Shown here: positions 1 to 17,172 of the stretch, piece after piece
Position numbering within the stretch: the first letter of the stretch is position 1
How the letters are laid out: the number at the start of each line of letters is the position of its first letter
Source of the DNA: Eledone cirrhosa
Lineage: Eukaryota
NCBI GenBank assembly: GCA_964016885.1
Contig: OZ024740.1
Location: 88,784,001-88,848,000, forward strand
Direction of reading: 5' to 3'
DNA: 64,000 bases
Made by a program: the position numbers and the translations under genes
Notes under the pieces: generated by a model
Told to the model about the DNA's origin: nothing
Seen by the model: only the letters and a program-made list of their open reading frames with translations
The model's database searches: none

Positions 1-2496
1 GTTGATGACATTGTAACTATAGGTTACTACTGGTATGGCAAGCGTGTTTATGGCATCGATCCTATTCCTTGCATTCAATTCCGTTCTTAAGATTGCTCTG
101 ACTCTGCGGTAACATTCCTTCCTTATCCTTTCCCTCATTGTCGAGTGCTTGATTCCGTCTCCTTCACAAACACCTAGATATTTTTAAGTTTGTTCTTGAT
201 CAAGCTCTCTTATCACGTTCCCCCGATCAAGATTAATGTCTGAACTCTTCAGCAGCTTTCCTCTGGTGAACGTTGCTTTGGCGCATTTATCCAGTCCAAA
301 CTCCATTTTAATGTCATCACTGAACTGCTTCACAGTGGATAATAGCCCTTGCAATTGTTCATCATTTTTTGCGAATAGTTTCAGGTCATCCATGTAGAAC
401 AGGTGATTAATGGTTTTGTCATAGACTCTATATCCATGTTTTGTTTCATTGAGCATTTTACTTAATGGTATAAGTGCGATGCAGAATAAAAGCAGTGATA
501 AAGAGTCACCCTGAAAAATTCCACAATTAATGTTAACTTCTCCAGCTTCCAGTGATTTTGTTTCACTATTCAAAAGGAGTGTCGTTCTCCATGTCCTCAT
601 ACTGAATGACAAAAACCTCCTGACAACGGGGGATATTTTGAAAATCTCTAAACATTTTTCAATCCAACTGTGTGGCAAACTATCAAATGCTTTTTTATAA
701 TCTATCCAAGCAATCGATAGATTTTTGTGTCTATTATGACAATCTTCCAGTATCATTTTGTTAACCAGAAGCTGATCCTTACAGCCATATGAGCCTCGTT
801 TACACCCTTTCTGCTCAATGGGAAATAGGTCATTTGTTATCAGGTGGTCATATGTGTATTCAGTTAGGACTGATGTTAAAATTTTATACATTGTGGTCAA
901 GCAGGTTATCGGTCTGTAATTTTTGGGATTGTTTGTCTCATCATTCTTCGGTAGCAGGAATGTAATGCCGTTAACTAGCCATGATGGTATATTTTCTGGC
1001 TCCTTAACTATTTCATTGTAAAGTTGGGCTAACAGCTCATGAGACTCTGTGAAGGCATTTATCCAAAAGTTTTGTATTTTGTCTTTTCCTGGGGATTTCC
1101 ATTTGCTGGTTTTTCTTAGAGCCAAGCGCAGCTGTTCAACTGTTATATTTTCCCATGTTTGTTCTTCAAGGTGAGCTGTTTCTTTCATTTGTCTGTCTAT
1201 CCATGGGGCATGTATGTTATGAACTCTTTCTTCGGCCCAGATCTTTTCCCAGAATTCTTGCACTTCCTCCATGGGTGGTATTGATTTAGCAGTTATTGTT
1301 GACTTACCAATTTTTCTGTAGAAGTTTCTTTGGTTGTTTTTGAACATATTATTGTCCTTATAGTATCTAGATCGTTTTTCAAAGCGCCTTATACGAGCAG
1401 CTTTGGCCGACACTTTTTGCTTGATTGTTTCTATCAGCATGTCTATGTCACATGTTGATTTTATACTGTACTTTTTTTTCAATTTTCTAAGTTTAGTTTG
1501 TTTAACATGTTCACCTACTTTATAGTTTGTTAAAATTTCTATGTCAGATCGGAGAAGGTTTATTTGGCGATTGATGTTATCTTGCCAAGTAGATTTCTTG
1601 TGGGAATTCCTTTGTTTTTTCATCTTCACTCCACATAAGTGAGTGGTGACTTTAGCCGATGCATAATAGAGATGATTTAAGTCAGTAATGTTTATTTTGT
1701 TTGTGATGATAATGTTTTTGAGAATTATGTTAGTCTTGTGTATTATCTTTTGGTTCTGTTTGGAGTTCTAGATCTTAGGGAGGGTGTCTCGTTCCCCCAT
1801 GTCAGATTCTTTCATTTTCATCCATTCGATCATAATTTCATCCTTCAAGTTGGCAAGTTCATTCTCATTCATTTCTTTATCATTTACGATCTCATTATTT
1901 TCATTTGGAGTTTCATCCTGAGCATGCACTCCCTCCACTTTTTCGCTCCTTTCTTTAATTTGTTCTGTTGCCAGTGATTCCGCCCCAACTCTGGGATTCG
2001 AAGTGTTACAGTTTACCTCGTTTTCACTGACACATGCTTCATTTTCCCTTCGCTGACTTTGTGCTACTAGCTTGATCTGATCAATTTCTATATCAGTTAG
2101 TAACTTTTTTCTTACAATATTTCTTCGTATATTGGCTAGTTTGTTACTGTCAATATAGCCTCTGTTTTCGGGATGTTTCTTTTTCCAGTTGATATATGTT
2201 TGCTCTGTATTCGATGTATTTGACGGGTAGTACATGGCAGTGTAGAAAGCCTCAAGGACTTCTTTATTATCTTCCCTTGACCATTTTTCTCTCTTTTTCT
2301 TTGGATTTCTTGGTGGTGAGCATGGAGGGCCAACAGTTGGAGTATTCCGGTTATGGGAGGTCTCCAGCTCCGAAGTGATGGGAAGGTTTGAACCATTAGC
2401 TGATTTTTCGACCCCAGTCTGGTTCCTCTCTGAGGGACGCGGCCCTTTTTTACCCGGGTGACGGCCGATCCGGTATGAGATTTCATCATTAGACAT
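1..2496 (-). pseudogene. Dong/R4-type reverse transcriptase ORF with two nonsense codons
   Basis: ORFs 1768..2496 and 184..1629 are in the same frame. YMDD catalytic motif is intact. Confidence 0.88.
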
Positions 2497-2660
2497 CCAC
2501 TTTATTTTGTCGCGTTTTATCCTTATCCGCCAAGGGGTAATCTTTTCGTGTTACCACTTCTAGAACGAGTGTCAACCAAGACTAGAGGGGTCGTTCTCCC
2601 CTAGAGACATGGCTATTCCCCGCCGGCCGCCATCCCGGTATTTCTTGGTCACGGGGTTTT
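1..2660 (-). mobile_element. R4/Dong-like non-LTR retrotransposon, family A, copy 1 (5' end present, runs off the window start)
   Basis: One reading frame from ATG 2496, broken by in-frame stops at 1768 and 184; copy 2 has CAA and TAC at those positions. RT motifs WKSPGKDKI, NYRPITCL, WIDYKKAFDS, GIFQGDSLS, HLFYMDDLKLF. Structured 5' leader at 2497-2660. Near-identical to part of 8426-11497. Confidence 0.9.
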
Positions 2661-2744
2661 CTTTTTGTTGTTTTTTTTAAATTGTTATTATCATGAGTGG
2701 TTCCTTAATGTGATCATTGCGTGGCTTAAGAATGAAATTATTAA

Positions 2745-2792
2745 TAATTGTCTCCACTCCAGGGACAAGGCCAGCAATCACCCAGTGCATTA
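2745..2792 (-). mobile_element. 3' tail fragment of the tRNA-derived SINE
   Basis: ttgtctccactccagggacaaggccagcaatcacccagtgcattac matches the reverse complement of the SINE tail at 60520-60566 and abuts AATAAT. Confidence 0.7.
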
Positions 2793-2998
2793 CAATAATA
2801 TAATATACTTTTTGTTGTAGTTGGCTGTTATTGCTGCTGGCTATGTCGGTGGTGGTGCCGGGGCTTTTTATATTGTTGGTGAGGAAGGGGTGAGCCAGCA
2901 GTCCCATAATTGTTGATGTAGACGTTTGTCCGTGGCAAGGTCACCAAGTCAATCTATTTATATCTTTTGCTAGCCTCTCTCTTGTCTAGTGCTACCAC

Positions 2999-5900
2999 CA
3001 ATGTGAGCCACAGTCTCCTCTCTCTCTCCACAGATCCTGCACAGTGGGCTAGCCTCCTCCTTGTAAATATGGTGCTTCAACCACTTCGTTTTGAGGGTCT
3101 GCTTCTGCGCAGCCATTAGCATTCCTTCTGTAGCCTTTTTGAGGTCTCCTCTTCTCAACCAGTTCCATGTCTATGGATCTCTAAATTCAGTTTTCTCAAA
3201 GAAGTTACTATGAAGGGATTTCCCTTAAGGCTGCTCTTCCTTCTTGATGTTATTTCCTCCTTGGATATCCCCTGGCCTACTGTCCCCTCCTTCAGTACAG
3301 TTCTGAGCATTGGCTCCTTACTATAGGTCACGTATTTGTATAGGTTGTTTTTCTCCATCTGAACACAGTCCTCTATGCTGATAAGACCTCTTCCACCCTC
3401 AGATCTCCTTAGGTAGAGTCTATCGACATCACTCCTCTTGTGGAACATGTTGTAGATAGTCAATAGCTTCCTAGTCTTCCTATCCATTTCTTTTTGTTCA
3501 GCAACATTCCATCTCAGAATTCCCGCACTGTACCTAATAATAGACACAGCTCGGGAATTTACTGCGCTTATGGCATTTCTGCTGTTCAGATGTGACTTCA
3601 ATACGCTCCTTATTCTCCGAATGTATTCAGTTCTTAACAATTCCTTCATTTTTTTGTTCTTTATGCCATCAGTCTCCAGAACGCCCAAATACTTGTATCC
3701 TTCCTCAGAGTCAATTTCCTTTATCATCTCACCTGTTGGTATCTGGATCCCGTTACTTCTGCTCAACCTACCCCTCCTCATCACAATGACTCCACATTTA
3801 CTAATACCAAACTGCATACATATATCACTGCTGAAGATACGGACAGTGTCAACAAGCACATCCAACTCCTTCTCACTTTTCCCGAAGAGCTTAAGATCGT
3901 CCATGAAGAGAAGGTGATTGATGGTAAGCTCTCCCTTTCCCAACTTGTATCCTGCTCTCACTTTTCGCAGCATAATGGTCAAGGGCATCAGGGCAAGGAC
4001 AAACAACAGAGGGGACAGGCTATCTCCCTGGAAGATACCTCTCTTGATCTTCACGCTTCCCAAGGATACTCCAGTTGATGTCAACTCTGTCTCCCAGGAC
4101 CCCATACTCCTGCCCAGCAACTGTCTGATGTTATCTGCCACCCTGAAGATCTCCAGGCTTTTGGTGATCCAAGAATGAGGCACAATGTCAAATGCCTTTC
4201 TGTAGTCTATCCATCCCATGGCAAGATCAGTGTGTCTCCTCCTGCAATTCCCCATTACCATCTTATCAATAAGTAACTGGTCCTTTGTACCACGTGACTT
4301 CTTTCGGCATCCTTTCTGTTCGTCCGGTAACAAGTTGTTTGTGTGGAGGTGATGGTAGATTTCCTCAGACACAATGCTCGTCAACAGTTTCCACATTACG
4401 GACAGACATGTGATAGGTCTATAGTTGGTAACATCATTACCCTTGATTCGGTCTTTCATTATCAGAACTGTGGTACCTTTTGTCAACCACTCTGGCACCT
4501 CACCCGACACCAAGCAGTCATTGAACATGGCCGTCAGCTTCGGGTGGAGGGATGTTAAATTTTTAATCCAATACCCCTGCACACCATCTGGGCCTGGTGA
4601 TTTCCAGTTGGTTAGTTGTTTGGCCTGCCCCTTAAGAGTTTCAACTGTGATACTCAAATCAGTTTGTTGGTGTGCCTGCTCACCGATCTCCCTCTGTACT
4701 GTCTCAATCCACCCTGCCTGGACATTATGTCTAACATCCTGCTCCCATATTCCTCTCCAGAATGTTTTAGTTTGCTCCGCCCCAGGGATCAAGTCGTTGC
4801 CTCTTTCTTTCCCCTCAAGCTGTCCAAACAGCATCTTCTGGTTGTTGTCGAACATGCGGTTCTGTTTATACTGACTGACTCTGTTCTCGTATCGCCTGAT
4901 TTTTGCACTCTTTGCTACAATGCGTTGCTTCAGTTCCTCTATGATAATATTTAGCTTTTTCCTCCTAGTTTTGTACTTTATTTCCAGTCTATTTTTAGTG
5001 CCTATGTTTTTTAGTGTCCCATTCAGTAGTGACTCAAGCTTTCCTATGTCATTTCTCATTTCCCCGATTTGACCACTCAGTCGTTTCTTCCACCACGGCT
5101 CTGCTCTTTCTTGTCTGTTGTTTCCTCTCGCTTTTATACCAAGTAGTTTCCTCACCGTATTTGCTGTTGCTTTGAGGATATTGTTGCACTGGTGAAGACT
5201 CCTCGCCTCAAGGTATGGGATGACTTTGTTTACCTTAGCTGTTGTTTCTTTTAACTTTTTCCTGTCTACAAATCTTAGGTTCATAGGTCTCCCACTATCA
5301 TTGTTCAATTCATCTACCACTAAATTTAGGATGTGAACCGAATCTTGTCCTAGCCCGTCAGCATTCATCTCCTCAGTGGCCGTATCTCTGTTCCAGGTAT
5401 TATTTATCTCAGTATTCAGATCATTGTCTGCTTCGGGTGGTTCCTCCGTTCTCAGGACCTCTTCACCTTCATTTCCAACTGGCTCGCTTGTCTGGCATAC
5501 TACACCCGCCATCTCCAAGCCATTCTCTCTGCTCAGTTCCTCCAGTTCCAGCTCGCTTATCCACCCATTAGTTCTTATTACCCGAGCCTGCCCGGCCAAT
5601 TTTTGTTCATCTAATTTAAATAGACCAATCTCGTTCCAGATGTTATGCATCCGTCTCCTGTAGCCCCTCTCCTTGAGGTTACTTTTCAGGTAACATTGCA
5701 TAACAGTTCTATTCAATTCTCTCGTCCAGTTGGTTCTGGCCCCTTTCCTTCTTCTTCTTTCTCCAACATCAGCAGTATTTGGTTGACAGTCAGGTTCCTG
5801 CTGCTGAGCCAGGGGGCACCTGTTGGGTGAGAGTCTGTCACATGACGTTCTAGTCTCCATTTCACCGTTATTCGAACTGTTTATGTTCGATATTTAAACA

Positions 5901-6318
5901 CTCTTATCGAGGATTGGCGAATGTATGGTTACATAGCCATCTGTGGATTCGCCGTTCCACTTGGCCTTTGTGTGGCATTATCACCACGCTGTATACGAAC
6001 ACACATAAACAAACAAACACACAGGCAGAGGGCCCCAAAAATGAATAAGCATAAGTTTCATTGTAATGTAGTGTTCGAATGTCTGACTTAGTTTTTGTTT
6101 TTTTAGTTTTAGTTTTTCCCCCCTCTTCTCTGTCCGTCCGCCTGCTTCTCTCTTCATTCTTATTTTCTTTACGTTTTTTGTTTTTTTTTGTTTTTGTTTT
6201 TCCCTGTTTGTTTTTCTCGTTTTTTGCTGTTGCTGCTTTGGTTTTGTTGTTTGTTTTTCCTTTTTTCTTTTGAGTCTATCTATATATTTTGATGCCTTCC
6301 TCTTTTTTAGTAGTAGGA
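2999..6318 (-). mobile_element. R4/Dong-like non-LTR retrotransposon, family B, copy 1 (5' complete, 3' end deleted)
   Basis: 901-aa ORF with RT motifs (WKSPGPDGV, NYRPITCL, WIDYRKAFD, GIFQGDSLSP, HLLFMDDLKLF). Frameshift near 3225, then the CRICGEREETVAH zinc knuckle. Homology to copy 2 stops at about 2999. The 5' side abuts (ATT)n at 6319. Confidence 0.88.
3155..5860 (-). pseudogene. Dong/R4-type RT ORF (901 aa), frameshifted before the zinc knuckle; RLE domain missing
   Basis: Supplied ORF 3155..5860 plus continuation in 2970..3158, compared with ORF 6979..8073. Confidence 0.87.

Positions 6319-6357
<39 letters not shown>
6319..6357 (+). repeat. (ATT)n microsatellite separating Dong-B copy 1 and the Tx1 fragment
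   Basis: Direct reading. Confidence 0.97.
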
Positions 6358-6359
<2 letters not shown>

Positions 6360-6686
6360 ACAAAATGTTGAAAGATGGGTGAGAGAAGCAAGAATGGCCC
6401 GAGTGAATGGGCCTACTCTCAGTATGTATCTGTAAATTAAAGGTGGAAAACTGGGAGAGGGCACTTGCCTTGGTGGTCAGGGTCACTATGGCCTTTTACT
6501 GGACTTTCTCCACAAATGTCCCTCCGAAGTCTCCCCCTTATTGGGGAATTTTTCATTGTCATTTTTTTGTTACATCCTCTGTTTTTGTTTTTTACACGCA
6601 TAAATGCCAAATTGTTACGTCCTGTATTGTCCTGCACTGTCCTTAATGTCTACTTTATGTAAACCCTTGTGGTTAATAAAGAAATC
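6358..6686 (+). mobile_element. 5'-truncated copy of the Tx1-like element (end of ORF2 + 3' UTR)
   Basis: Highly similar to 17095-17423 with the same terminus (cccttgtggttaataaagaaatc). Flanked by (ATT)n on both sides. Confidence 0.93.
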
Positions 6687-6701
6687 ATTATTATTATTAT
6701 T

Positions 6702-8363
6702 GTTCTTTGAGTCTCAGAACTGGAAAGTTTGTTGAAATGAATATCAAGCCACTACCTGCAGCCTCAGATATTCAGGACGTATCGGAGGGTTCTTGCTGTT
6801 CCCAGCAAGTATGCATTTTGAAGCGTTCCAAAAAGCGTGGCGGGGCCACATTTCTTTAACCATCCCTGTAAATTTTTGAGCTTGTACCTAGTGCGCCTTT
6901 GACTTCATGGCAGTTCCAAATCCTTTTTACCTCCCACTTTAAGTCCTGGTATCGGTTAATATTCTCCCTCTCCTTCTCTTACACTCTCGTGTCGAATGGG
7001 CAGGCCACATCTACAATCAGGCACGATCTTTTTTCCTTGTCCACAACCACCAGGTCAGGTCTATTGTGTTCCAGTTTCTTGTCCGTCTGTATCCTAAAAT
7101 CCCACAGCACCTTCAACTGATCGTTTTCTATCACCGACTCTGGCTTATGCTCATACCACTTCTCAGAATGTGGTAAATTGTTTACTTTGCATAGGTGCCA
7201 GTGGATCACCCTGTCCATCACATCATGTCTCCAGCCCTTATAGTGAGTCTGGGCTAGGTGTTTATACTCGGATACAATGTGAGCCACAGTCCCCTCTCTC
7301 TCTCCACAGATCCTGCACAGTGGGCTAGCCTCCTCCTTGTAAATATGGTGTTTCAACCACTTCGTTTTGAGGGCCTGCTCCTGCGCAGCCATTAACATTC
7401 CTTCTGTAGCCTTTTTAAGGTCTCCTCTTTTCAACCAGTTCCATGTTTGTGGATCTCTAAATTCAGCTTTCTGAAAGAAGGTACTATGAAGGGATTTTTC
7501 CTGAAGGATGCTCTTTCTCCTTGATGCTATTTCCTCCTTGGACATCCCCTGGCCTATTGTCCCCTCCTTCAGTACAGTTCTGAGCATTGGCTCCTTACTA
7601 TCGGTCACGTATTTGTGTAGGTTGTTTTTCTCCATCTGAACACAGTCCTCTATGCTGATAAGACCTCTTCCACCTTCAGATCTCCTTAAGTAGAGTCTAT
7701 CGACATCACTCCTCTTGTGGAACATGTTGTAGATAGTCAATAGCTTCCTAGTCTTCCTATCCATTTCTTTTTGTTCAGCAACATTCCATCTCAGAATTCC
7801 CGCACTGTACCTAATAATAGACACATCTCGGGAATTTACTGCACTTATGGCATTCCTACTGTTCAGATGTGACTTTAATACGCTCCTTACTCTCCGAATG
7901 TATTCAGTTCTTATCAATTCCTTTATTTTTTTGTTCTTGATGTCATCAGCCTCCAGAATACCCAAATACTTGTATCCTTCTTCAGAGTCAATTTCCTTTA
8001 TCATCTCACTTGTTGGAACCTGGATTCCGTTACTTCTGCTCAATTTGCCTTCTTCATCACAATGACTCCACACTTACTAATACCAAATTGCATACATATA
8101 TCATTGCTGAAAATACGGACAGTGTCAACAAGCACATCCAACTCCTTCTCACTCTTCCCGAAGAGCTTAAGATCGTCCATGAAGAGGAGGTGATTGATGG
8201 TAAGCCCTCCCTTTTCCAACCTGTATCCTGCTCACACTTTTCGCAGTACACTGGTCAGGGGCATCAGGGCAAGGACAAACAACAGAGGGGCCAGACTATC
8301 TCCCTGGAAGATACCTCTCTTGATCTTCACGCTTTCCAAGGATTCTCCAGTTGATGTTAACTC

Positions 8364-8364
<1 letters not shown>
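6702..8364 (-). mobile_element. Dong-like family B, copy 2 (5'-truncated; RT C-terminus, zinc knuckle, RLE endonuclease, 3' UTR)
   Basis: CRICGEREGTVAH, RHD, NRPDLVVVD..DVACPFD (PD-(D/E)xK-type RLE). C-terminus LLGTARTLRYVLNI* ends at 6764. Flanked by (ATT)n at 6687-6701 and 8365-8424. Confidence 0.92.

Positions 8365-8424
<60 letters not shown>
8365..8424 (+). repeat. (ATT)n microsatellite
   Basis: Direct reading. Confidence 0.98.
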
Positions 8425-8425
<1 letters not shown>

Positions 8426-8426
<1 letters not shown>

Positions 8427-11400
8427 AGTTGCATTTATTTTGCTTTATATTCATACGAGTTATCACCAAGTCACAACCAGTGACCTCAAGAGACAACAAG
8501 GTCCGCCATGTTCAAGAAATAACGTACATACTCACACATGCATCTTTAGTGTTTAGACTTGTGATGTACTTATATTGACAGAATCTTCCTTAGTATATGG
8601 GGAGTTCCCATTAGTACTATCTTTTATATTTCTCCTATACGCGGGTTTCCTGGGATTTGCGATAAGTAATCATTAGACCCCTTAGGTATCATTCCCAGAG
8701 CGCCTACAACCACTGGTATTGTTTTAGTTCTCAATTTCCACATTTTTCCAATTTCTATCTCCAGGTCCTTATACTTGCTCAATTTTTCAAATGTTTTTAT
8801 AGATACATTCTTGTCTATTGGAACAGACATATCAATTAGCAGGCATATCCTCTTTTTGAAGTCCTTCAATATTATATCAGGTCTTTTTGCATCTATTTTT
8901 CGGTCTGTTTGGATGCTAAAGTTCCACAAGATTGAGATGTGATCTTTTTCAAGTATGAGAGCTGGTTGATGCTCCCACCAATTCTTTTGATGGGGCAGGT
9001 CAAAATGCTTACACATTATCCAATGTATGTATTGTGCAGCTCTGTCATGCCTGTTTAGGTATTCGGTTGGATCTATAGGACTGCACATTGAAATTATATG
9101 GTCAATGGTCTCTTGTTGTTTTTTGCGTACACGGCATAATGGGCTGCACCCATTTTTTATTATGTTGGCTTGGTAATTTTTTGTTGGCAAACACTGATCT
9201 TGTGCCGATATGATCAGTCCTTCAGTCTCCGATTTCAGTCCAGAGGATGCCAACCACTGATGGGTTAAAGTTTCGTCAACATCAGGATTGTTAGCTCGCT
9301 CTGGGTATTTTCCATACAAAGGCTTTTCTTGCCATTTCTTAGCCAGTTTCTGTAGCAGTTCTTTCTTTGCAGTTACATTTACCTGCTTTGCTTTTTCTGT
9401 GTTTTCCATTTCAGCAGTAAATGGGACTTCTGAAATTTGTAGTCTATTACTGTATCTTTGTGCATCTTTTGTAATGGAATATGATCTTTTGATGCTTTCG
9501 TGTTTCAAAACGAGTTTGATCATCCAATCATGTGATTCCCTTAGATATTTAGATAATCCAATTGTTGCAGTTTTCAACGCAATGTCTAACTGGATTAACC
9601 CACGTCCTCCTTCTTTCCTAGGGAGATATATTCTATCTATATCTGCTCTAGGGTGATGCATTCTGCGCATGGTTAAGAATTTTCGAATTTTTGTATCGAG
9701 CCTACGGATCTCTGTGCTTGACCAGTTGATGACATTGTAACTGTAGGTTACTACTGGTATGGCAACCGTGTTTATGGCATCGATCCTATTCCTTGCATTC
9801 AATTCCGTTCTTAAGATTGCTCTTACTCTGCGGTAACATTCCTTCCTTATCCTTTCCCTCATTTTCGAGTGCTTGATTCCGTCTCCTTCACAAACACCTA
9901 GATATTTGTAAGTTTTTTCTTGATCAAGTTCTCTTATCACGTTCCCCCGATCAAGATTAATGTCTGAACTTTTCAGCAGCCTTCCTCTGGTGAACGTTCC
10001 TTTGGCGCATTTTTCTAGTCGAAACTCCATTTTAATGTCATCACTGAACTGCTTCACAGTGGATAATAGCCCTTGCAATTGTTCATCATTTTTTGCAAAT
10101 AGTTTCAGGTCATCCGTGTAGAACAAATGATTAATGGTTTTGTCATAGACTTTATATCCATGTTTTGTTTCATTGAGCATTTTACTTAATGGTATAAGTG
10201 CGATGCAGAATAAAAGCGGTGATAATGAGTCACCCTGAAAAATTCCACAATTAATATTAACTTCTCCAGCTTCCAGTGATTTTGTTTCACTATTCAAAAG
10301 GAGTCTCGTTTTTCATGTCTTCATACTGAATGACAAAAACCTCCTGACAACGGGGGATATTTTGAAAATCTCTAAACATTTTTCAATCCAACTGTGTGGC
10401 AAACTATCAAATGCTTTTTTATAATCTATCCAAGCAATCGATAGATTTTTGTGTCTATTATGACAATCTTCCAGTATCATTTTGTTAACCAGAAGCTGAT
10501 CCTTACAGCCATATGTGCCTCGTTTACACCCTTTCTGCTCAATGGGAAATAGGTAATTTGTTATCAGGTGGTCATATGTGTATTCAGTTAGGACTGATGT
10601 TAAAATTTGATACATTGTGGTCAAGCAAGTTATCGGTCTGTAATTTTGGGGATTGTTTGTCTCATCATTCTTCGGAAGTAGGAATGTAATGCTGTTAACT
10701 AGCCATGAAGGTATCTTTTCTGGCTCCTTAACTATTTCATTGTAAAGTTGGGCTAACAGCTCATGAGACTCTGTGAAGGCATTTATCCAAAAGTTTTGTA
10801 TTTTGTCTTTTCCTGGGGATTTCCATTTGCTGGTTTTTCTTAGAGCCAAGCGCAACTTTTCAACTGTTATATTTTCCCATGTTTGTTCCTCAAGGTGAGC
10901 TGTATCTTTCATTTGTCTGTCTATCCATAGGTTATGTATGTTATGAACTTTTTCTTCGGCCCAGATCTTTTCCCAGAATTCTTGCACTTCCTCCTTGGGT
11001 GGTATTGATTTAGCAGTTATTGTACACTTACCAATTTTTCTGTAGAAGTTTCTTTGGTTGTTTTTGAACATATTATTGTCCTTATAGAATCTAGATCGTT
11101 TTTCAAAGCGCCTTATACGAGCAGCTTTGGCCGACACTTTTTGCTTGATTATTTCTATCATCTTGTCTATGTCACATGTTGATTTTATACTTTACCTTTT
11201 TTTCAATTTTCTAAGTTTAGTTTGTTTAACACGTTCACCTACTTTATAGTTTGTTAACATTTCTATGTCAGATCGGAGAAGGTTTATTTGGCGATTGATG
11301 TTCTCTTGCCAAGTAGATTTCTTGTGGGAATTCCTTTGTTTTTTCATCTTCACTCCACATAAGTGAGTGGTGACTTTAGCCGATGCATAATAGAGATGAT

Positions 11401-11496
11401 TTAAATCAGTAATGTTTAGTGTGTTTGTGATGATAATGTTTTTGAGAATTATGTTAGTCTTGTGTATTATCTTTTGGTTCTGTTTGGAGTTTTGGA

Positions 11497-11497
<1 letters not shown>
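8426..11497 (-). mobile_element. Dong-like family A, copy 2 (5'-truncated, 3' complete)
   Basis: ORFs 10313..11161 and 8624..10297. RT has YTDD where copy 1 has YMDD. CRVRKKQQETIDHIISMC knuckle, RHD, KRPDIILKD..IDMSVP..EKLSKY RLE. Premature stop at 8624, natural stop at 8570. Flanked by (ATT)n. Confidence 0.93.

Positions 11498-11560
<63 letters not shown>
11498..11560 (+). repeat. (ATT)n microsatellite, left flank of the full-length Tx1
   Basis: Direct reading. Confidence 0.98.
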
Positions 11561-11941: not shown

Positions 11942-13723
11942 ATGACTGCAGATGTTAAAGCCTCCACCACCACCACCACCGCGACAACCACGACCCCCAC
12001 CACCACCGCGACAACAGAAACAAAAGAAGAAAAAAATAAATTAACTCGTGATGTCGAAATGAAATCTGACGTCACCACCACCACAACTGAAACTAAAATT
12101 AATATTAACGATAGCAACAACAACAACAATGACATTATAAAACCGACCCTCAGTTTCGCCATCGTAGCAAAACAATTCGAAGCGTTCACGGTAACTCAAG
12201 AAGATTTAGAAAATGCCAAACAAATGGTAAAGAAAGATGGGTACAGGGTCAGCCTCACCCCCCGCCTAATAAAATGGAGCATCGGCGCCTGTGCACCGTG
12301 TCGTATAGAACAATAAATGTAAAATCGCGCCGAGTGGAACGGGCATCCGAGTCCCAAATCCAAAAAGCTTTGGGACATATGTGGGCAAGAAAAACCCACA
12401 TCAGACGTGAGCAAAAGTATGGAACCGTGGATGTGTTCTTTGAAACACCACAGGAGGCTAGAGAACACTCCATGGCCCCATTAAGAAGTGACGACTTCAC
12501 ACTCGTTCCAAGCTATTGTGGCCAGAGACTCGTAAAGATCAGGGTGACCCACGTTCCACCGGCCATCGAAATTCCCTGGCTAATAGCGGCTGTCCTCACC
12601 GGCATCGAAGCCAACACGAAAATAATAGCAGTAGCAAAAGAAAAGCAGGAAAACTGGTCCGGATCTGGGATGGAGCTCCTGATCCAAGCGGACCAAAAAA
12701 GCATTGAGGAGATCCCAGAGGTAATAGACCTCACTGACGGCAGCCACCTCACGGTAATTGTCGAGGGCAGAAGACCTAGGTGTGTCGTTTGTGGTGAAGG
12801 AACCCACCTAAGGGCTTTCTGCCCTCAGGCTAAAAGGTTGAGGCCACCTCTCCTACCCACCCCAGTGACACAACCATCAACACCACCAGTAGCAGAGATG
12901 GCAGCAACAACTGTAGCAGCAACAACAGAAGCAACTATAACAGCAACAACCCCAGCAACAGTAGCAAAACCAACACCACTACCACCACCAGCAAAACCAA
13001 CACCACCACCACCCAACGCTTCAGAACTAGCACCAGCGCCTACACCATCCACCACACCACAACCAAAACTAACGGCTGTGGAGGATTTTCCACTCCCCGG
13101 CCTATCACAACTGGAGACAGATTGTGACGACGAGGAGTGGGAAACGATATCCGGAAAAAAAAAAAGAAACCAAAAAAGAAAAAAATTCTCTTCCTTCCCC
13201 CTCCAAAAACAAAATACAGAGGGAAACAAATAAACTAAGAAACAAAAAAGTTAGGACAGATATGCCACCATCCACACCAGCATCACCAACCCCATCAACC
13301 CAAACACCAACACCATCACCATCATTAACTCCAACACCACCATCACCTACACCACAAAAGTCACCAAAATGCGAAACAGAAACAAACCCACAACAAACGC
13401 AGACAAAACAAAACAACCAAAACGATACACACTACACAGCATTAAATTTGAACAACAAGCAATTATTACACTACATCCAACACAACACCAGCATCACAGA
13501 AAAAGACTACACAACAACCCCAAAATTCACACCACCTCCACACATACAAATCACTCGCATCACACAGAAAACGTACATGACACTAAAACAAAAATTCCCC
13601 AAAGACATCGGAGACTTCCGACAAGCACTCTCCAGGAGGATTTATAAGGACATCCTTCCTGAGGAGGCCACAAGCAGTGAAAAGGATGGAAAAGCCGTCC
13701 TTCCCCTACGAGAAGTAAGGTAA
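11942..13723 (+). pseudogene. Tx1-like ORF1 (nucleic-acid-binding protein), two frameshifts
   Basis: Pieces 11906..12316, 12274..13233 and 13124..13723. CVVCGEGTHLRAFC = C-x2-C-x4-H-x4-C. Thr/Pro-rich low-complexity segments. One shift lies in or near the poly-A run at about 13155. Confidence 0.82.
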
Positions 13724-13757
13724 GTGGTCTTTCCCATCTTTTCCACTCCTTTTCAAC

Positions 13758-16700
13758 ATGACCTCACTCAGAATAGGCAGCATAAATGCGCGTGGCTTGG
13801 GGTCGTCATGGAAGCAGGGCCACCTGCTCAACGACCTCAGGTCACTAAACATAGATGTAGTGGCCATCAGCGAGACCAGAATCTCCGAAGCACAGGCTTT
13901 CGCACCGATCTTCGGCGGCTACGATGTGTACGCATCTCCCAGCCGTCCGGGATCGGGGGGAGGAGTTGCTGTGCTTTTTCGGAGAGGTTTGGATCTTGCC
14001 ATACGGGCCATCTTCCTGGACCCAGAAGGTAAGTTGGTGGTGCTGGACGTGACCAGCGGAGACGGGCAAGCTTTCAGGTTAGTGGCCGTCTATGCCCCGA
14101 CAGGAGCAGGGCGGCCTAATTTCTTCCGGCGTCTGGAGACCTTTCTTGGAACGTCCCGCTCTTTAGTGTTAGTGGGCGACTGGAACGGGATCTTAGATGC
14201 ACGCTGGGATTGTGTGGGATTAGTGGATAGGGAAGGAGGGTGCAAGAGTCTCACCAACCCGCTCAGACGTTTTGAACTGTCTGACAGGTACCGAATGGAT
14301 TTCCCGAATGTACCAATGTGGACTTGGACAAATCGCATAGGGTCATCCAGATCATATCTAGATAGAGTATTTTGTAGGGAAATAGATAGATCTAGCATAG
14401 GCTGTCCACAATTCAAGATAGTCAGCTACACGGACCACAAATTCGTGATCTGTGTGCTTGACTTAGGCTTCATAGACGAGGACCCGGCTACTGGAAGCTA
14501 AACGCGTCCTTACCAGCGCGCAAGGCCTACAGAGACCGGATTAGCGAGCTAGTTAAGCGGGCGTTGACGGGGGCCATCGTCAACAACAAGTGGTGGTTTG
14601 CTCTGAAAAGAGCAATTAGAATAGAGTCCATTAGGTTTAGTAAGACTTTAGCAATAGAGAAAAATAGAGCAGAGGGAGAATTAGTTAGAAAATTAGATGA
14701 GGCGCTTAGCAAAGGCATCGCGACCGACGTACTTGCGGCGAAATGACCCTTGACCAATTCTTCAATGCAAAGCACGAAGGCTGCGTTGTCAGAGCTAGGG
14801 TGCGTCCTCTCAGACACGAGGGGACGAAAGCCGTTCAATGGGCCCGAGTGGCGGAGGCGCGTCGTGGCAACAAAGCCACGATCCGGTCTTTGGTGGACCA
14901 CGACGGGCGCATGCTACTCGATCCTGGGCAAATGTGTGAAGCTTTTCAGCGACACTTCGCTCAACTGTTCGGGGGCAGTGGCGGGCCGGATCGAGGGATG
15001 GACTTTAGTGTCTACCTCGACGGACTGCCGCGGCTTTCGGCCACTGAGGCGGAGTGTTGCGAAAAGCCGATAACAACCGCTGAAGTACGGGATGCAATGA
15101 CTAGTTGCACAAGGGCTAAATCGCCTGGTTTGGATGGTCTGCCCTATGAACTTTACGTACAAATGCCAAACTTGTTCGGAGCCCTCTTGGCGGACGTCTA
15201 CTGCAACTGGCAACAGAACGGGAGAATTCCCAGCTCTGTGAGCCGAGGAGCGGTGGCGCTGCTGAGAAAGGATCCGAACAAGGGGGATAACATAGATAAT
15301 TTTAGGCCCATAACTCTGCTAAACACAGAGTTCAAGATTTTGGCCAAGGTGCTAGCAAAGAGGTTGGCGCTTGTCGTTGGTGGTCTGGTGGGAGAGGCAC
15401 AGACATGCGCCATTCCCGACAGATCCATCCACGACAACCTCCACCTCATGCGATACATCGTAGAGAGGGTAGCTAGGGAACCTGGCACGGGTGGGTCTTT
15501 GATCAATTTAGATCAGTCGAAAGCCTTCGATAGGGTCGACCATCGTTACCTAGCGGCAGTCCTGAGGGCGGCTGGCTTTGGGCCCGTCTTCAGAGGCTGG
15601 ATCGCTGCCATGCACAGCGACATCTGCTCTGTAGTGAGAGTGAACGGTCATCTTTCGGAACCGTTCAACATCATGCGCTCGGTCCGCCAAGGATGTCCCC
15701 TCTAGTCCCTATTGTACGTATTGTCTCTCGAGCCATTACTGCACAAACTGGAGACGTTGAGGGGGGTCCCGCGCGAACTAGGATGCGGAAGATCCGTGTC
15801 AGCATATGCCGACGATGTCACCGTAGTGGTGTCGAACGCCAAACACATCGAGGCGATCGGCACTACACTAAGAGAATACGAAGCGGTGACAGGAGCAATG
15901 ATCAACCAAGAAAAGTCAGTGGGCCTGCAGCTTGGCACCTGGAGAGGCAGGTCCATGCCGTCCAACAGCGTCGTCGGACGCTGGACAGACGGACCGGTTA
16001 AATTGCTAGGGGTCTGGTTGGGTCCGGACCTCCAGACGGACAAAAACTGGGACGAGGTGACGAGCAGGGTGGCTTCTCTCACCCAGAAATGGGCGGAGAG
16101 GAAGCTATCCCTGAAATGTCGAGCGGAGGTGGCTAACGCGTACATCGCGTCTGTCATCTGCTACCGCCTGACCGTCGTACCTTGTCCTAATCCTCGCCTG
16201 ACTGCGCTGGAGCGTTTAATCTTTCGGTTTTTGTGGAAGGGACGCGCTCCGATGGTCAGGCGGTCCATCTGTTGTCAACACCCGCTACGTGGAGGGCTGG
16301 GCATGCCGTGGCTGATAATGCGCAGGCACGCGCTCAGGCTACAACATCTCCACCTTTTCCTCGACGGTGATCAGGTGTGGTCGCCGTTTGCTAGACACGT
16401 ATTTCCCCAGCTCGTTTCCTTGACGGAGCTGCAGTCCTGGGTCAAGCGAAGACCGAGAGGGAGCGCCTGGAGACTGGAATGTCTTCAGGCGCTCACAGCC
16501 CTTGACCAATCGGGCAATGTGATCGGTGGAAACTCCACCTCGGCGTTCTATAGAGGATTAGTGGAGGGGAAGAGCGACGACGTACTTGGAGAAACTCTAG
16601 GCGTCGACGAAAATCAACTAGCCAATCTCTTCGGAAGAACTTTCGGGCCAGGGCCTATGTACAACTTCCAGAAATCTCTGGCCTGGCAGTGCTACCGAGG

Positions 16701-17172
16701 AATCTTGCCAGTTCGGGATAAACTCTACAGGCATGGAGGTGCCGTCAGCCGGGCATGTCCGAGATGCGCGCAGGGCGACGAAACCGTCCTGCACGCACTC
16801 GTCCAGTGTCCGAAAATTGCTGACTTGTGCGTTTATGTCGAACACCTGCTGTCGCGTGTAGGACGGATCCGGCTATCATCTGAGTCCATCGTGAGGATTG
16901 CCCCGCCCTCCTCATTTAGCTGGGAAGGGCAGGCAGTTTTTATCTGTCTGGTGGCCATGGCGAAAGAGATAGTATGGTGGACACGTTTGAAAGGTTTGAA
17001 GACGAGCACTTACCTCTTCGGTGATGCCCTGATTGACTTTTTCAAATTTCATTTGAAAAGGAAAATCAGAGTAGAGAGGGAAGTACTCTCTTCCCAGCAT
17101 TTTGTTGAAAGATGGGTGAAAGAAGCAAGAATGGCCCGATTGAATGGGCCTACTCTGAGTATATATCTGTAA
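13758..17172 (+). pseudogene. Tx1-like ORF2: AP endonuclease, reverse transcriptase, zinc finger (two frameshifts, one stop)
   Basis: APE motifs SINARGL, DVVAISET, VYAP, GDWN, LDRVF, TDH, then GPGYWKLN in the shifted frame. RT motifs SPGLDGLP, FRPITLLN, LDQSKAFDRVDH, VRQGCPL*P, YADD. CPRCAQGDETVLHALVQC. Confidence 0.93.

Follow-up and report, generated by a model that had tools for sequence, protein, structure and literature searches.

What does the RNA predicted just ahead of the open reading frame (ORF) of a Dong-like retrotransposon in Eledone cirrhosa do? The stretch in question occupies positions 2660 to 2497 on the minus strand of the window, i.e., the whole 64,000 nucleotides (nt) of DNA that were analyzed. 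A first-pass annotation, made from the letters alone, had read it as one double-pseudoknot fold at the element's 5' end, either self-cleaving or IRES-like. Comparison with homologues indicates that the stretch is a real, covarying pseudoknotted RNA structure, and the pairings and their recurrence in distant leaders show, at the level of predicted folds, a chain of three modules ahead of a single ORF. As to function, a role in self-cleavage or translation is our best guess, backed by a pile-up of 5' insertion junctions.

The element and its relatives

The window copy of the element, here termed family A, lies on the minus strand at positions 1 to 3000, where it runs off the window at one side and is truncated at its 5' side at 3000. 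It sits within a copy of a second family, B, whose protein is 36% identical to that of family A, and its ORF carries two in-frame stops (1770-1768 and 186-184). The family A ORF of 1216 amino acids, intact in seven of the eight copies retrieved, starts 154 nt past G2650, with its ATG at 2496. The protein contains a reverse transcriptase domain (RVT_1), a CCHC finger, and a C-terminal restriction-like endonuclease with a PD-D-K..KY motif. TAA runs flank all eight copies at both ends, which indicates insertion into (TAA)n. Family A therefore fits the R4/Dong type, a label taken from its anatomy and (TAA)n target, and it is a multicopy family, with 1134 candidates in the E. cirrhosa genome, 40 of which were scored.

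Copies of family A often lie inside TAA tails of family A, family B, and other repeats, forming nested clusters (L046 to L053 and the flanks of L225 to L239), and positions 1 to 11,560 of the window form a nested cluster of the same sort. Subfamily A2 also occurs as a tandem array of seven head-to-tail copies with a spacing of ∼4.9 kb (G000:C2:353612557-353642045). Another reverse transcriptase-bearing element, with several long frames, lies on the plus strand of the window at 12133 to 17169; its reverse transcriptase is 22 to 28% identical to those of families A and B.

Homologues were fetched by protein alignment (80 metagenomic loci, 1 viral locus, and 15 genome-bin loci), and upstream sequence was compared for 36 of the first 81. 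Parts of the leader are common to eight loci (L084, L088, L089, L091, L098, L102, L108, and L127, part of which is duplicated by L129). Protein identity to family A is 35 to 51% in the seven of these eight that were measured, with L127 at 35%. The homologues divide the stretch into three modules, present in differing combinations. L088 and L108 are each represented by one contig of low coverage and may be truncated copies. A protein search with the N-terminal region gave no matches, and viral contigs gave only one distant element and two unrelated coding matches. A tRNA-like leader head replaces modules 1 to 3 in four further R4/Dong relatives (L100, L105, L107, and L116); that of L100 is the sole Rfam match above gathering score, and the rest were recognized by eye. 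Animal-type retrotransposon and SINE-like sequences in prokaryotic genome-bin contigs (L165 to L179) are probably host contamination.

Folding of the stretch

The strands named by the first-pass annotation lie where it placed them, and all of them pair: the 8-bp P1 (8/8 pairs), ATGGC/GCCAT (5/5), CCCCG/CGGGG (5/5), AGAACGA/TCGTTCT (7/7), GGTAA/TTACC (5/5), and CCTT/AAGG (4/4). CTAG/CTAG, an extension of its second hairpin, is complete in the window copy (4/4) and half complete in L127 (2/4), the single homologue scored. As a single sequence, the stretch does not fold beyond chance. Its minimum free energy has a z score of −0.28, with 73 of 200 shuffles folding as well, helices of at least 8 bp (G-U allowed) were equaled in 116 of 300 shuffles, and Watson-Crick helices of at least 7 bp were equaled in 21 of 300. 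All support for structure derives from the homologues.

The stems of the earlier reading are all there, and CCGG/CCGG (2638-2623), GTC/GAC (2582-2571), and a GCG/CGC pseudoknot had been overlooked. The arrangement of these parts as a single three-way junction is not supported, as its closing helix P1 (2650-2643/2581-2574 within 2574 to 2650, minus strand) overlaps the covarying GTC/GAC hairpin, with which its outer pairs compete, and CCGG/CCGG was missed. P1 has the stronger stacking (−13.8 kcal/mol, versus −4.6 for GTC/GAC), and six of its eight pairs are found in L127. Its core, GACCAA/TTGGTT, keeps five of six pairs in L127 and at best four of six in L108 among the four registers tried; the loop of L108 that matches the core also pairs 6/6 with the 3' tail. 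P1 bridges the linker of module 1 and the second loop of module 2, and its core may be an extra loop pairing.

Module 1 (2609 to 2656, minus strand) consists of CCCCG/CGGGG (2656-2652/2622-2618) enclosing CCGG/CCGG (2638-2635/2626-2623), the hairpin loop of which pairs with GCCAT (2633-2629/2613-2609); two of these three helices had been caught by the earlier reading. L108, L127, and L088 retain every pair of both stems, with two-sided letter changes in L108 and L088, and CCGG/CCGG is kept in all four leaders that have the module. The loop pairing is present at four of five pairs in L108 and L127, and none is evident by eye in L088. A descriptor tuned on these leaders found the same four places only in 855 kb and one match in shuffled sequence, while a consensus pattern found family A variants only; the evidence base for module 1 is four lineages. 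The module stands at the 5' end of the leader in L088 and L108, which start 1 to 2 nt past (TAA)n, and ∼120 nt inside the leader in L127.

Module 3 (2512 to 2535, minus strand) is an H-type pseudoknot in which the loop of CCTT/AAGG provides a GCG that pairs with CGC past an A-rich linker. All 35 cells are paired in five sequences, but covariation is thin, with two pairs changed on both sides, and 11 of 500 shuffles scored as high. It is kept in four homologues and not present in L098, L102, and L127; the L084-type sequence of the module was not found in the E. cirrhosa genome. The distance to the start codon varies little: the spacer and ATG occupy 2494 to 2511 (minus strand), with a spacer of 15 nt in family A and 16, 13, and 13 nt in L084, L088, and L108, respectively. 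In most copies of family A, an in-frame stop immediately precedes the ATG (TAG in subfamily A1 and TAA in A2; the window copy has TGG). In L084, L088, and L108, an out-of-frame AUG lies within module 3, so that a scanning ribosome would be trapped.

Beyond the stretch, module 4 (2412 to 2467, minus strand) comprises two hairpins over ORF codons 10 to 29. In 11 R4/Dong elements, 3 of them without modules 1 to 3, 96% of its 132 cells are paired and 9 of 12 pairs are changed on both sides, and the conserved N-terminal peptide may reflect the RNA structure of this module.

Module 2 and the RTE/Ceph conserved domain

Module 2 (2536 to 2601, minus strand) begins with a GGGG/CCCC hairpin whose 7-nt loop pairs with TCGTTCT (2568-2562) and continues with the GTC/GAC hairpin, a degenerate third hairpin, and the GGTAA/TTACC pairing. 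Its parts follow in the order 7-nt-loop hairpin, linker ending in UAG, 3-bp hairpin, two bases, loop-pairing strand, AG, third hairpin, and tail ending in ACC. A covariance model built from seven sequences without family A matches the window at 42.3 bits (E value of 3.9e-11), the next match being at 7.3 bits. These seven sequences carry the published RTE/Ceph motif, and the sequences of that publication itself were compared by eye. On these matches, we identify module 2 with the published RTE/Ceph domain.

The RTE 5'-untranslated-region (UTR) conserved domain was described by Kojima in 2018 as the Ceph-SINE domain's 3' half (PMC5786205). According to that paper, the domain lies mid-UTR in RTE and also in R4-1_ADi and Ingi-3_AC, is occasionally doubled, and may act as a transcriptional regulator. 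Its main text reports the domain as sequence alone, with no mention of “pseudoknot” or “stem,” and the alignments of its supplement show, by eye, the same 7-nt loop pairing in many letter sets. The literature searched, coverage of which left out most subscription journals, patents, and Repbase reports, gave no structure or function for the domain. The term “uncharacterised” in the first-pass annotation is accordingly not supported for the middle part of the stretch, as its sequence conservation among leaders of RTE, R4, and Ingi and in Ceph-SINEs was published in 2018, with no structure given (PMC5786205). Module 2 shares the spacing and motif of the domain as presented there, including duplication, seen here in L089; family A differs in its degenerate third hairpin and in having modules 1 and 3 at the flanks.

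In an alignment of 10 sequences, 90% of 170 cells are paired, 10 of 17 pairs are changed on both sides, and slid partners pair at 29 to 51%; the covariation score was reached by 0 of 500 shuffles. Because the sequences are kin, these figures are not probabilities. The best helix is the second pseudoknot of the earlier reading, with six of seven pairs changed on both sides. In GTC/GAC, two of three pairs are changed on both sides and 87% are paired. The model scored weakly on L108 (E value of 0.06) and L088 (0.015) and missed L084; L108 was excluded from the pair count because of its weak score. As a partner of the 3' ACC, either loop would fit in L108, the second loop in L098, and the third in family A and L127.

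Within the E. cirrhosa genome, the sister subfamily has G in place of the A of A1 at 2595 (168 matches, 7 in one tandem array). Among the 100 of these matches listed, 2564 carries a compensating C in 90, U in 9, and a mismatch in 1; this A-U to G-C change between subfamilies is one evolutionary event. In related organisms, represented by low-depth contigs from 8 of 23 runs (3 of which cover 2544 to 2654), three motif substitutions turn U-A into U-G, one falls in a loop, and two preserve the stop before the ATG. Identity between A1 and A2 is 95% over the unstructured 90 nt upstream and 94 to 96% in the motif, so conservation does not mark the motif out, and family A has a broken third hairpin in module 2.

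The motif is abundant. A loose descriptor was unspecific, with 43 matches in 393 kb of shuffled sequence, and a strict one, the design of which drew on family A, had no match in 60 Mb of random sequence; exact 20-mer matches number 23,142 in the E. cirrhosa genome, against 0 for the control. In the 25 motif loci that were read (L180 to L204), the motif lies within a 608-nt repeat without a long ORF, which is likely a bipartite non-autonomous RTE derivative. This repeat (L195:1262-1869) lies in (TA)n tracts, with a short C2H2-like reading frame at its end. In L179, module 2 stands behind a tRNA-like head, recognized by eye (ARAGORN called none). Retention behind such Pol III heads leads us to infer that module 2 is not self-cutting; a similar argument has been made for HDV ribozymes (PMC5786205). 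In the Dong leaders, module 2 is internal to the 5' UTR, 21 to 221 nt from the ATG. It does not place the start codon alone, since it is kept in noncoding SINE-like repeats, its distance to the ATG varies, and it lies mid-UTR in RTE, R4-1_ADi, and Ingi-3_AC.

5' termini of genomic copies

The position given to the fold by the first-pass annotation, at the element's 5' end, is not that of the full-length form, in which the stretch lies ∼945 nt inside the leader. The full leader measures 1076 to 1152 nt and contains 14 to 15 ATGs in six copies. In a sample of 30 copies taken at the ORF start, 15 extend 895 to 935 nt upstream of G2650 (−935 being where the reference itself started, with the terminus near −945) and 15 are truncated at scattered places. 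None of the 30 begins at G2650, the G of the opening G-U pair that had been likened to HDV-like ribozymes, so that likeness is not supported. Families A and B have the same 5' terminus and first bases and share ∼320 nt there, with 76% identity over 347 aligned nt (L054 and L081; L035 and L038), which suggests that a promoter module was swapped between them. A GTAAG donor-like site 40 nt into the leader gave no spliced copy beside 115 unspliced A1 termini, in a search that a second exon starting with GT would escape. The leader of family B (5987 to 5916, minus strand) has a possible double pseudoknot of its own before the ATG, a 5-bp hairpin whose loop pairs 6/6 with 5921-5916 with a second hairpin between; the order of helices is as in module 2, without a sequence match.

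The A4 run ahead of module 1 (2657 to 2660, minus strand) is a hot spot of 5' insertion junctions and a candidate RNA 5' end, the exact base of which is not resolved within the run. Copies in the E. cirrhosa genome whose junction with the TAA target falls no more than 7 nt from module 1 gave 33 matches, representing 21 distinct copies. Their junctions are TAATAA-AA-CCCCG in 13, TAATAA-CCCCG in 4, and other in 4, starting 0 to 6 nt before module 1, and 17 of the 21 fit one RNA end at AA-CCCCG, TAA microhomology masking the exact base. Six A-rich control sites searched with the same pattern gave 6, 3, 2, 0, 4, and 5 copies; the adjacent upstream control window shares one copy with the test, and the control at −227 covers A1 only. 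Assuming independent copies, the Poisson P value for the pile-up is 5e-6 against the highest control. The 10 junction sites that were read involve both subfamilies and differing flanks, five of them being family B tails. The junction geometry of L088 and L108 matches this pile-up. Exact full-length A1 termini number 115, versus the 21 module-1-edge copies of both subfamilies, and no module-1-edge copy occurs in the ORF-start sample (0/30).

Proposed mechanism and alternative explanations

Our preferred explanation, which we hold tentatively, is that the stretch is a set of three covarying pseudoknotted modules, the first of which may cut the RNA at its edge while the other two may load ribosomes on the uncapped product. 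Module 1 would be an ancestral 5'-terminal processing unit, standing where Bombyx mori Dong has an HDV-like ribozyme, and family A would later have added the upstream promoter-like leader that it has in common with family B. Uncut RNA would then give rise to full-length copies and cut RNA to copies starting at AA-CCCCG. After a cut at 2660 to 2657, the remaining leader would be ∼160 nt long and hold 2 of the 14 upstream AUGs, 12 being removed; splicing, a different means of avoiding these AUGs, gave no example in the search described above. The task of module 3 would be to set the ribosome 13 to 16 nt ahead of the start codon; that of module 2 would be to bind a host component, probably the ribosome. 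A host partner is favored over the protein of the element because module 2 spans RTE, R4, and Ingi endonucleases and because modules 1 and 2 also occur in L127, with its protein identity of 35%. R4 and B. mori Dong are known to cut themselves at the 5' junction by means of HDV-like ribozymes (PMC3774820), and in R2 and L1Tc, HDV-like 5' structures reportedly behave like IRESs (reviewed in PMC6765202).

Several observations count against cleavage. Most leader-bearing family A copies ignore the site, module 1 is internal in L127, and the module is without a known catalytic core; in addition, a few short master copies might inflate the pile-up. A nuclease block, a second promoter, and protein-triggered joining make the same prediction of an identical pile-up. 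Joining of this kind would follow if the stretch served the element's own protein as a platform for binding, with reverse transcription past module 1 triggering the second-strand cut and no RNA cleavage. In R2, integration involves binding of the protein to a 5' pseudoknot (PMC6765202), module 4 covaries within the ORF start of 11 R4/Dong elements, and non-autonomous repeats that need protein in trans keep module 2, all of which would suit such a platform. We nevertheless regard it as rather unlikely, since RTE, Ingi, and R4 have different proteins yet a common module 2, family B (36% identical) is without a match to the module 2 model, and the fixed spacing between module 3 and the ATG is left unexplained. 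Less probable again is an exoribonuclease-resistant module 1, before which 5'-to-3' decay of long or read-through transcripts would stall to leave short-leader RNA. No Rfam xrRNA family matches, and the literature searched, at the level of titles and listings, holds no case of an xrRNA in a retrotransposon; on the other hand, the compact nested pseudoknot, with a putative RNA end 0 to 4 nt before the first stem, would suit a block, and a block needs no catalytic motif.

To a similarly low probability we assign a second transcription start at 2657 to 2660, which would make the short copies without any cut and reduce the modules to translation elements. The sharp promoter-like terminus common to families A and B makes internal promoters plausible in this lineage, and the evidence for translation would apply unchanged. 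Paired changes in module 1 of L108 and L088, however, fit an RNA structure rather than a DNA motif. An added G at a junction is a sign of a copied cap, and the junctions are without one directly before the A run, except for 1 of the 21, where the G is the element's own. The single ribozyme of the earlier reading, a three-way junction with P1, two hairpins, and two pseudoknots that would cut at G2650, can draw on the stacking energy of P1 and its 6/8 pairs in L127. It is very unlikely in view of the covariation of GTC/GAC, the incompatibility of CCGG/CCGG with ATGGC/GCCAT as a plain hairpin stem of the junction, the many elements in which module 2 stands alone, and the absence of starts at G2650 among 30 copies. 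The equal identity of A1 and A2 upstream and in the motif, together with the broken third hairpin, would be expected of a relic that was inherited and no longer has a function in family A. The compensatory A-U to G-C change between subfamilies (90 of 100 listed copies) and the substitutions in related organisms, with three U-A to U-G changes and one in a loop, make a relic extremely improbable.

Module 1 is a fair candidate for a new ribozyme. A further-reaching reading, which we put forward as a doubtful possibility, is that module 1 represents a new class of small self-cleaving ribozymes (∼50 nt, nested double pseudoknot) replacing the HDV-like one in part of R4/Dong, and that module 2 is a pseudoknot that binds ribosomes, has been exchanged between RTE, R4, and Ingi LINEs, and is retained by SINEs as a means of capturing nascent reverse transcriptase. 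To our knowledge, small self-cleaving RNAs fall into few classes, and a new one could be tested for cheaply with module 1, where the cut is predicted to within 4 bases. Whatever module 1 proves to be, the pseudoknot fold of module 2 gives a testable shape to the 2018 sequence domain of RTE LINEs and Ceph-type SINEs in many animals. Gene-writing templates use RTE UTRs (reviewed in PMC13708176), and the fold could guide their design if the UTRs used carry the domain.

Comparison with known RNA classes

Structured 5' RNAs that process or translate non-LTR transcripts are known already; folds such as the present ones are not described in the literature searched, within the coverage given above. 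The Rfam scan proposed in the first-pass annotation, run over 8 kb of the window, 4 E. cirrhosa loci, and 16 loci of homologues, found none of its ribozyme, IRES, or xrRNA families, and the stretch itself gave no match at E values up to 10. The annotation had also found no match to HDV, twister, pistol, or hammerhead cores, and we agree, the defining features tested being absent and the Rfam models silent. The hammerhead core is CUGANGA, which occurs 0 times in the 1426 nt of leader and ORF start, and hammerhead was rejected, with no Rfam match either. In pistol, the core has GCG after the pseudoknot strand. Module 2 is like pistol in that the entire loop of a hairpin pairs downstream and another hairpin comes next, and unlike it in having AGA after the pseudoknot strand in family A (AG in the aligned homologues), in being kept behind tRNA-like SINE heads, and in giving no Rfam match. 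For xrRNA, the pile-up is compatible with a stop of Xrn1 just before the fold, and there is no Rfam match.

Module 3 resembles HCV-like IRESs in that a pseudoknot precedes the AUG by a short and fixed distance, as outlined in PMC2760816. The stretch differs from the type outlined there in having no domains II and III and no Rfam IRES match, module 3 being a 24-nt H-type fold. The order of AA, stem, CCGG hairpin with an 8-nt loop, stem, and loop partner in module 1 is like that of twister and the T-variant of Schistosoma Perere-3 (PMC8501958). The 5' end of module 1 may fit the N/AA of twister, in that 17 of 21 junctions are compatible with AA-CCCCG, TAA microhomology hiding the exact base. In the terms of Table 1 of PMC8501958, however, it has no GC/GC second pseudoknot, no GUAAA junction (0 nt), no GAGGG strand, and no P1. 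Twister membership was rejected, as the T2 GC/GC, the L2 junction, and GAGGG with its catalytic G, as tabulated there, are missing and the likeness is one of strand order only.

Module 1 was also compared with the HDV-like ribozymes of R4 and Dong. An HDV-like P1 has 6 to 7 bp from the cleavage site, whereas the stem of module 1 has 5 bp in family A and L108 and starts with C. Its loop pairing, of 5 bp, follows a linker of 4 nt, the P4 and J4/2 context in which a catalytic C would sit is missing, as is the conserved P3/L3/P1.1 core, and a loose pattern of the HDV-type P3/L3 was found 0 times in the 1426 nt of leader and ORF start. Module 1 belongs to the same clade of elements, has the (TAA)n target of Dong, and in L088 and L108 stands in the same place as those ribozymes; the strand order of the nested double pseudoknot is alike, as is the proposed link to cap-independent translation.
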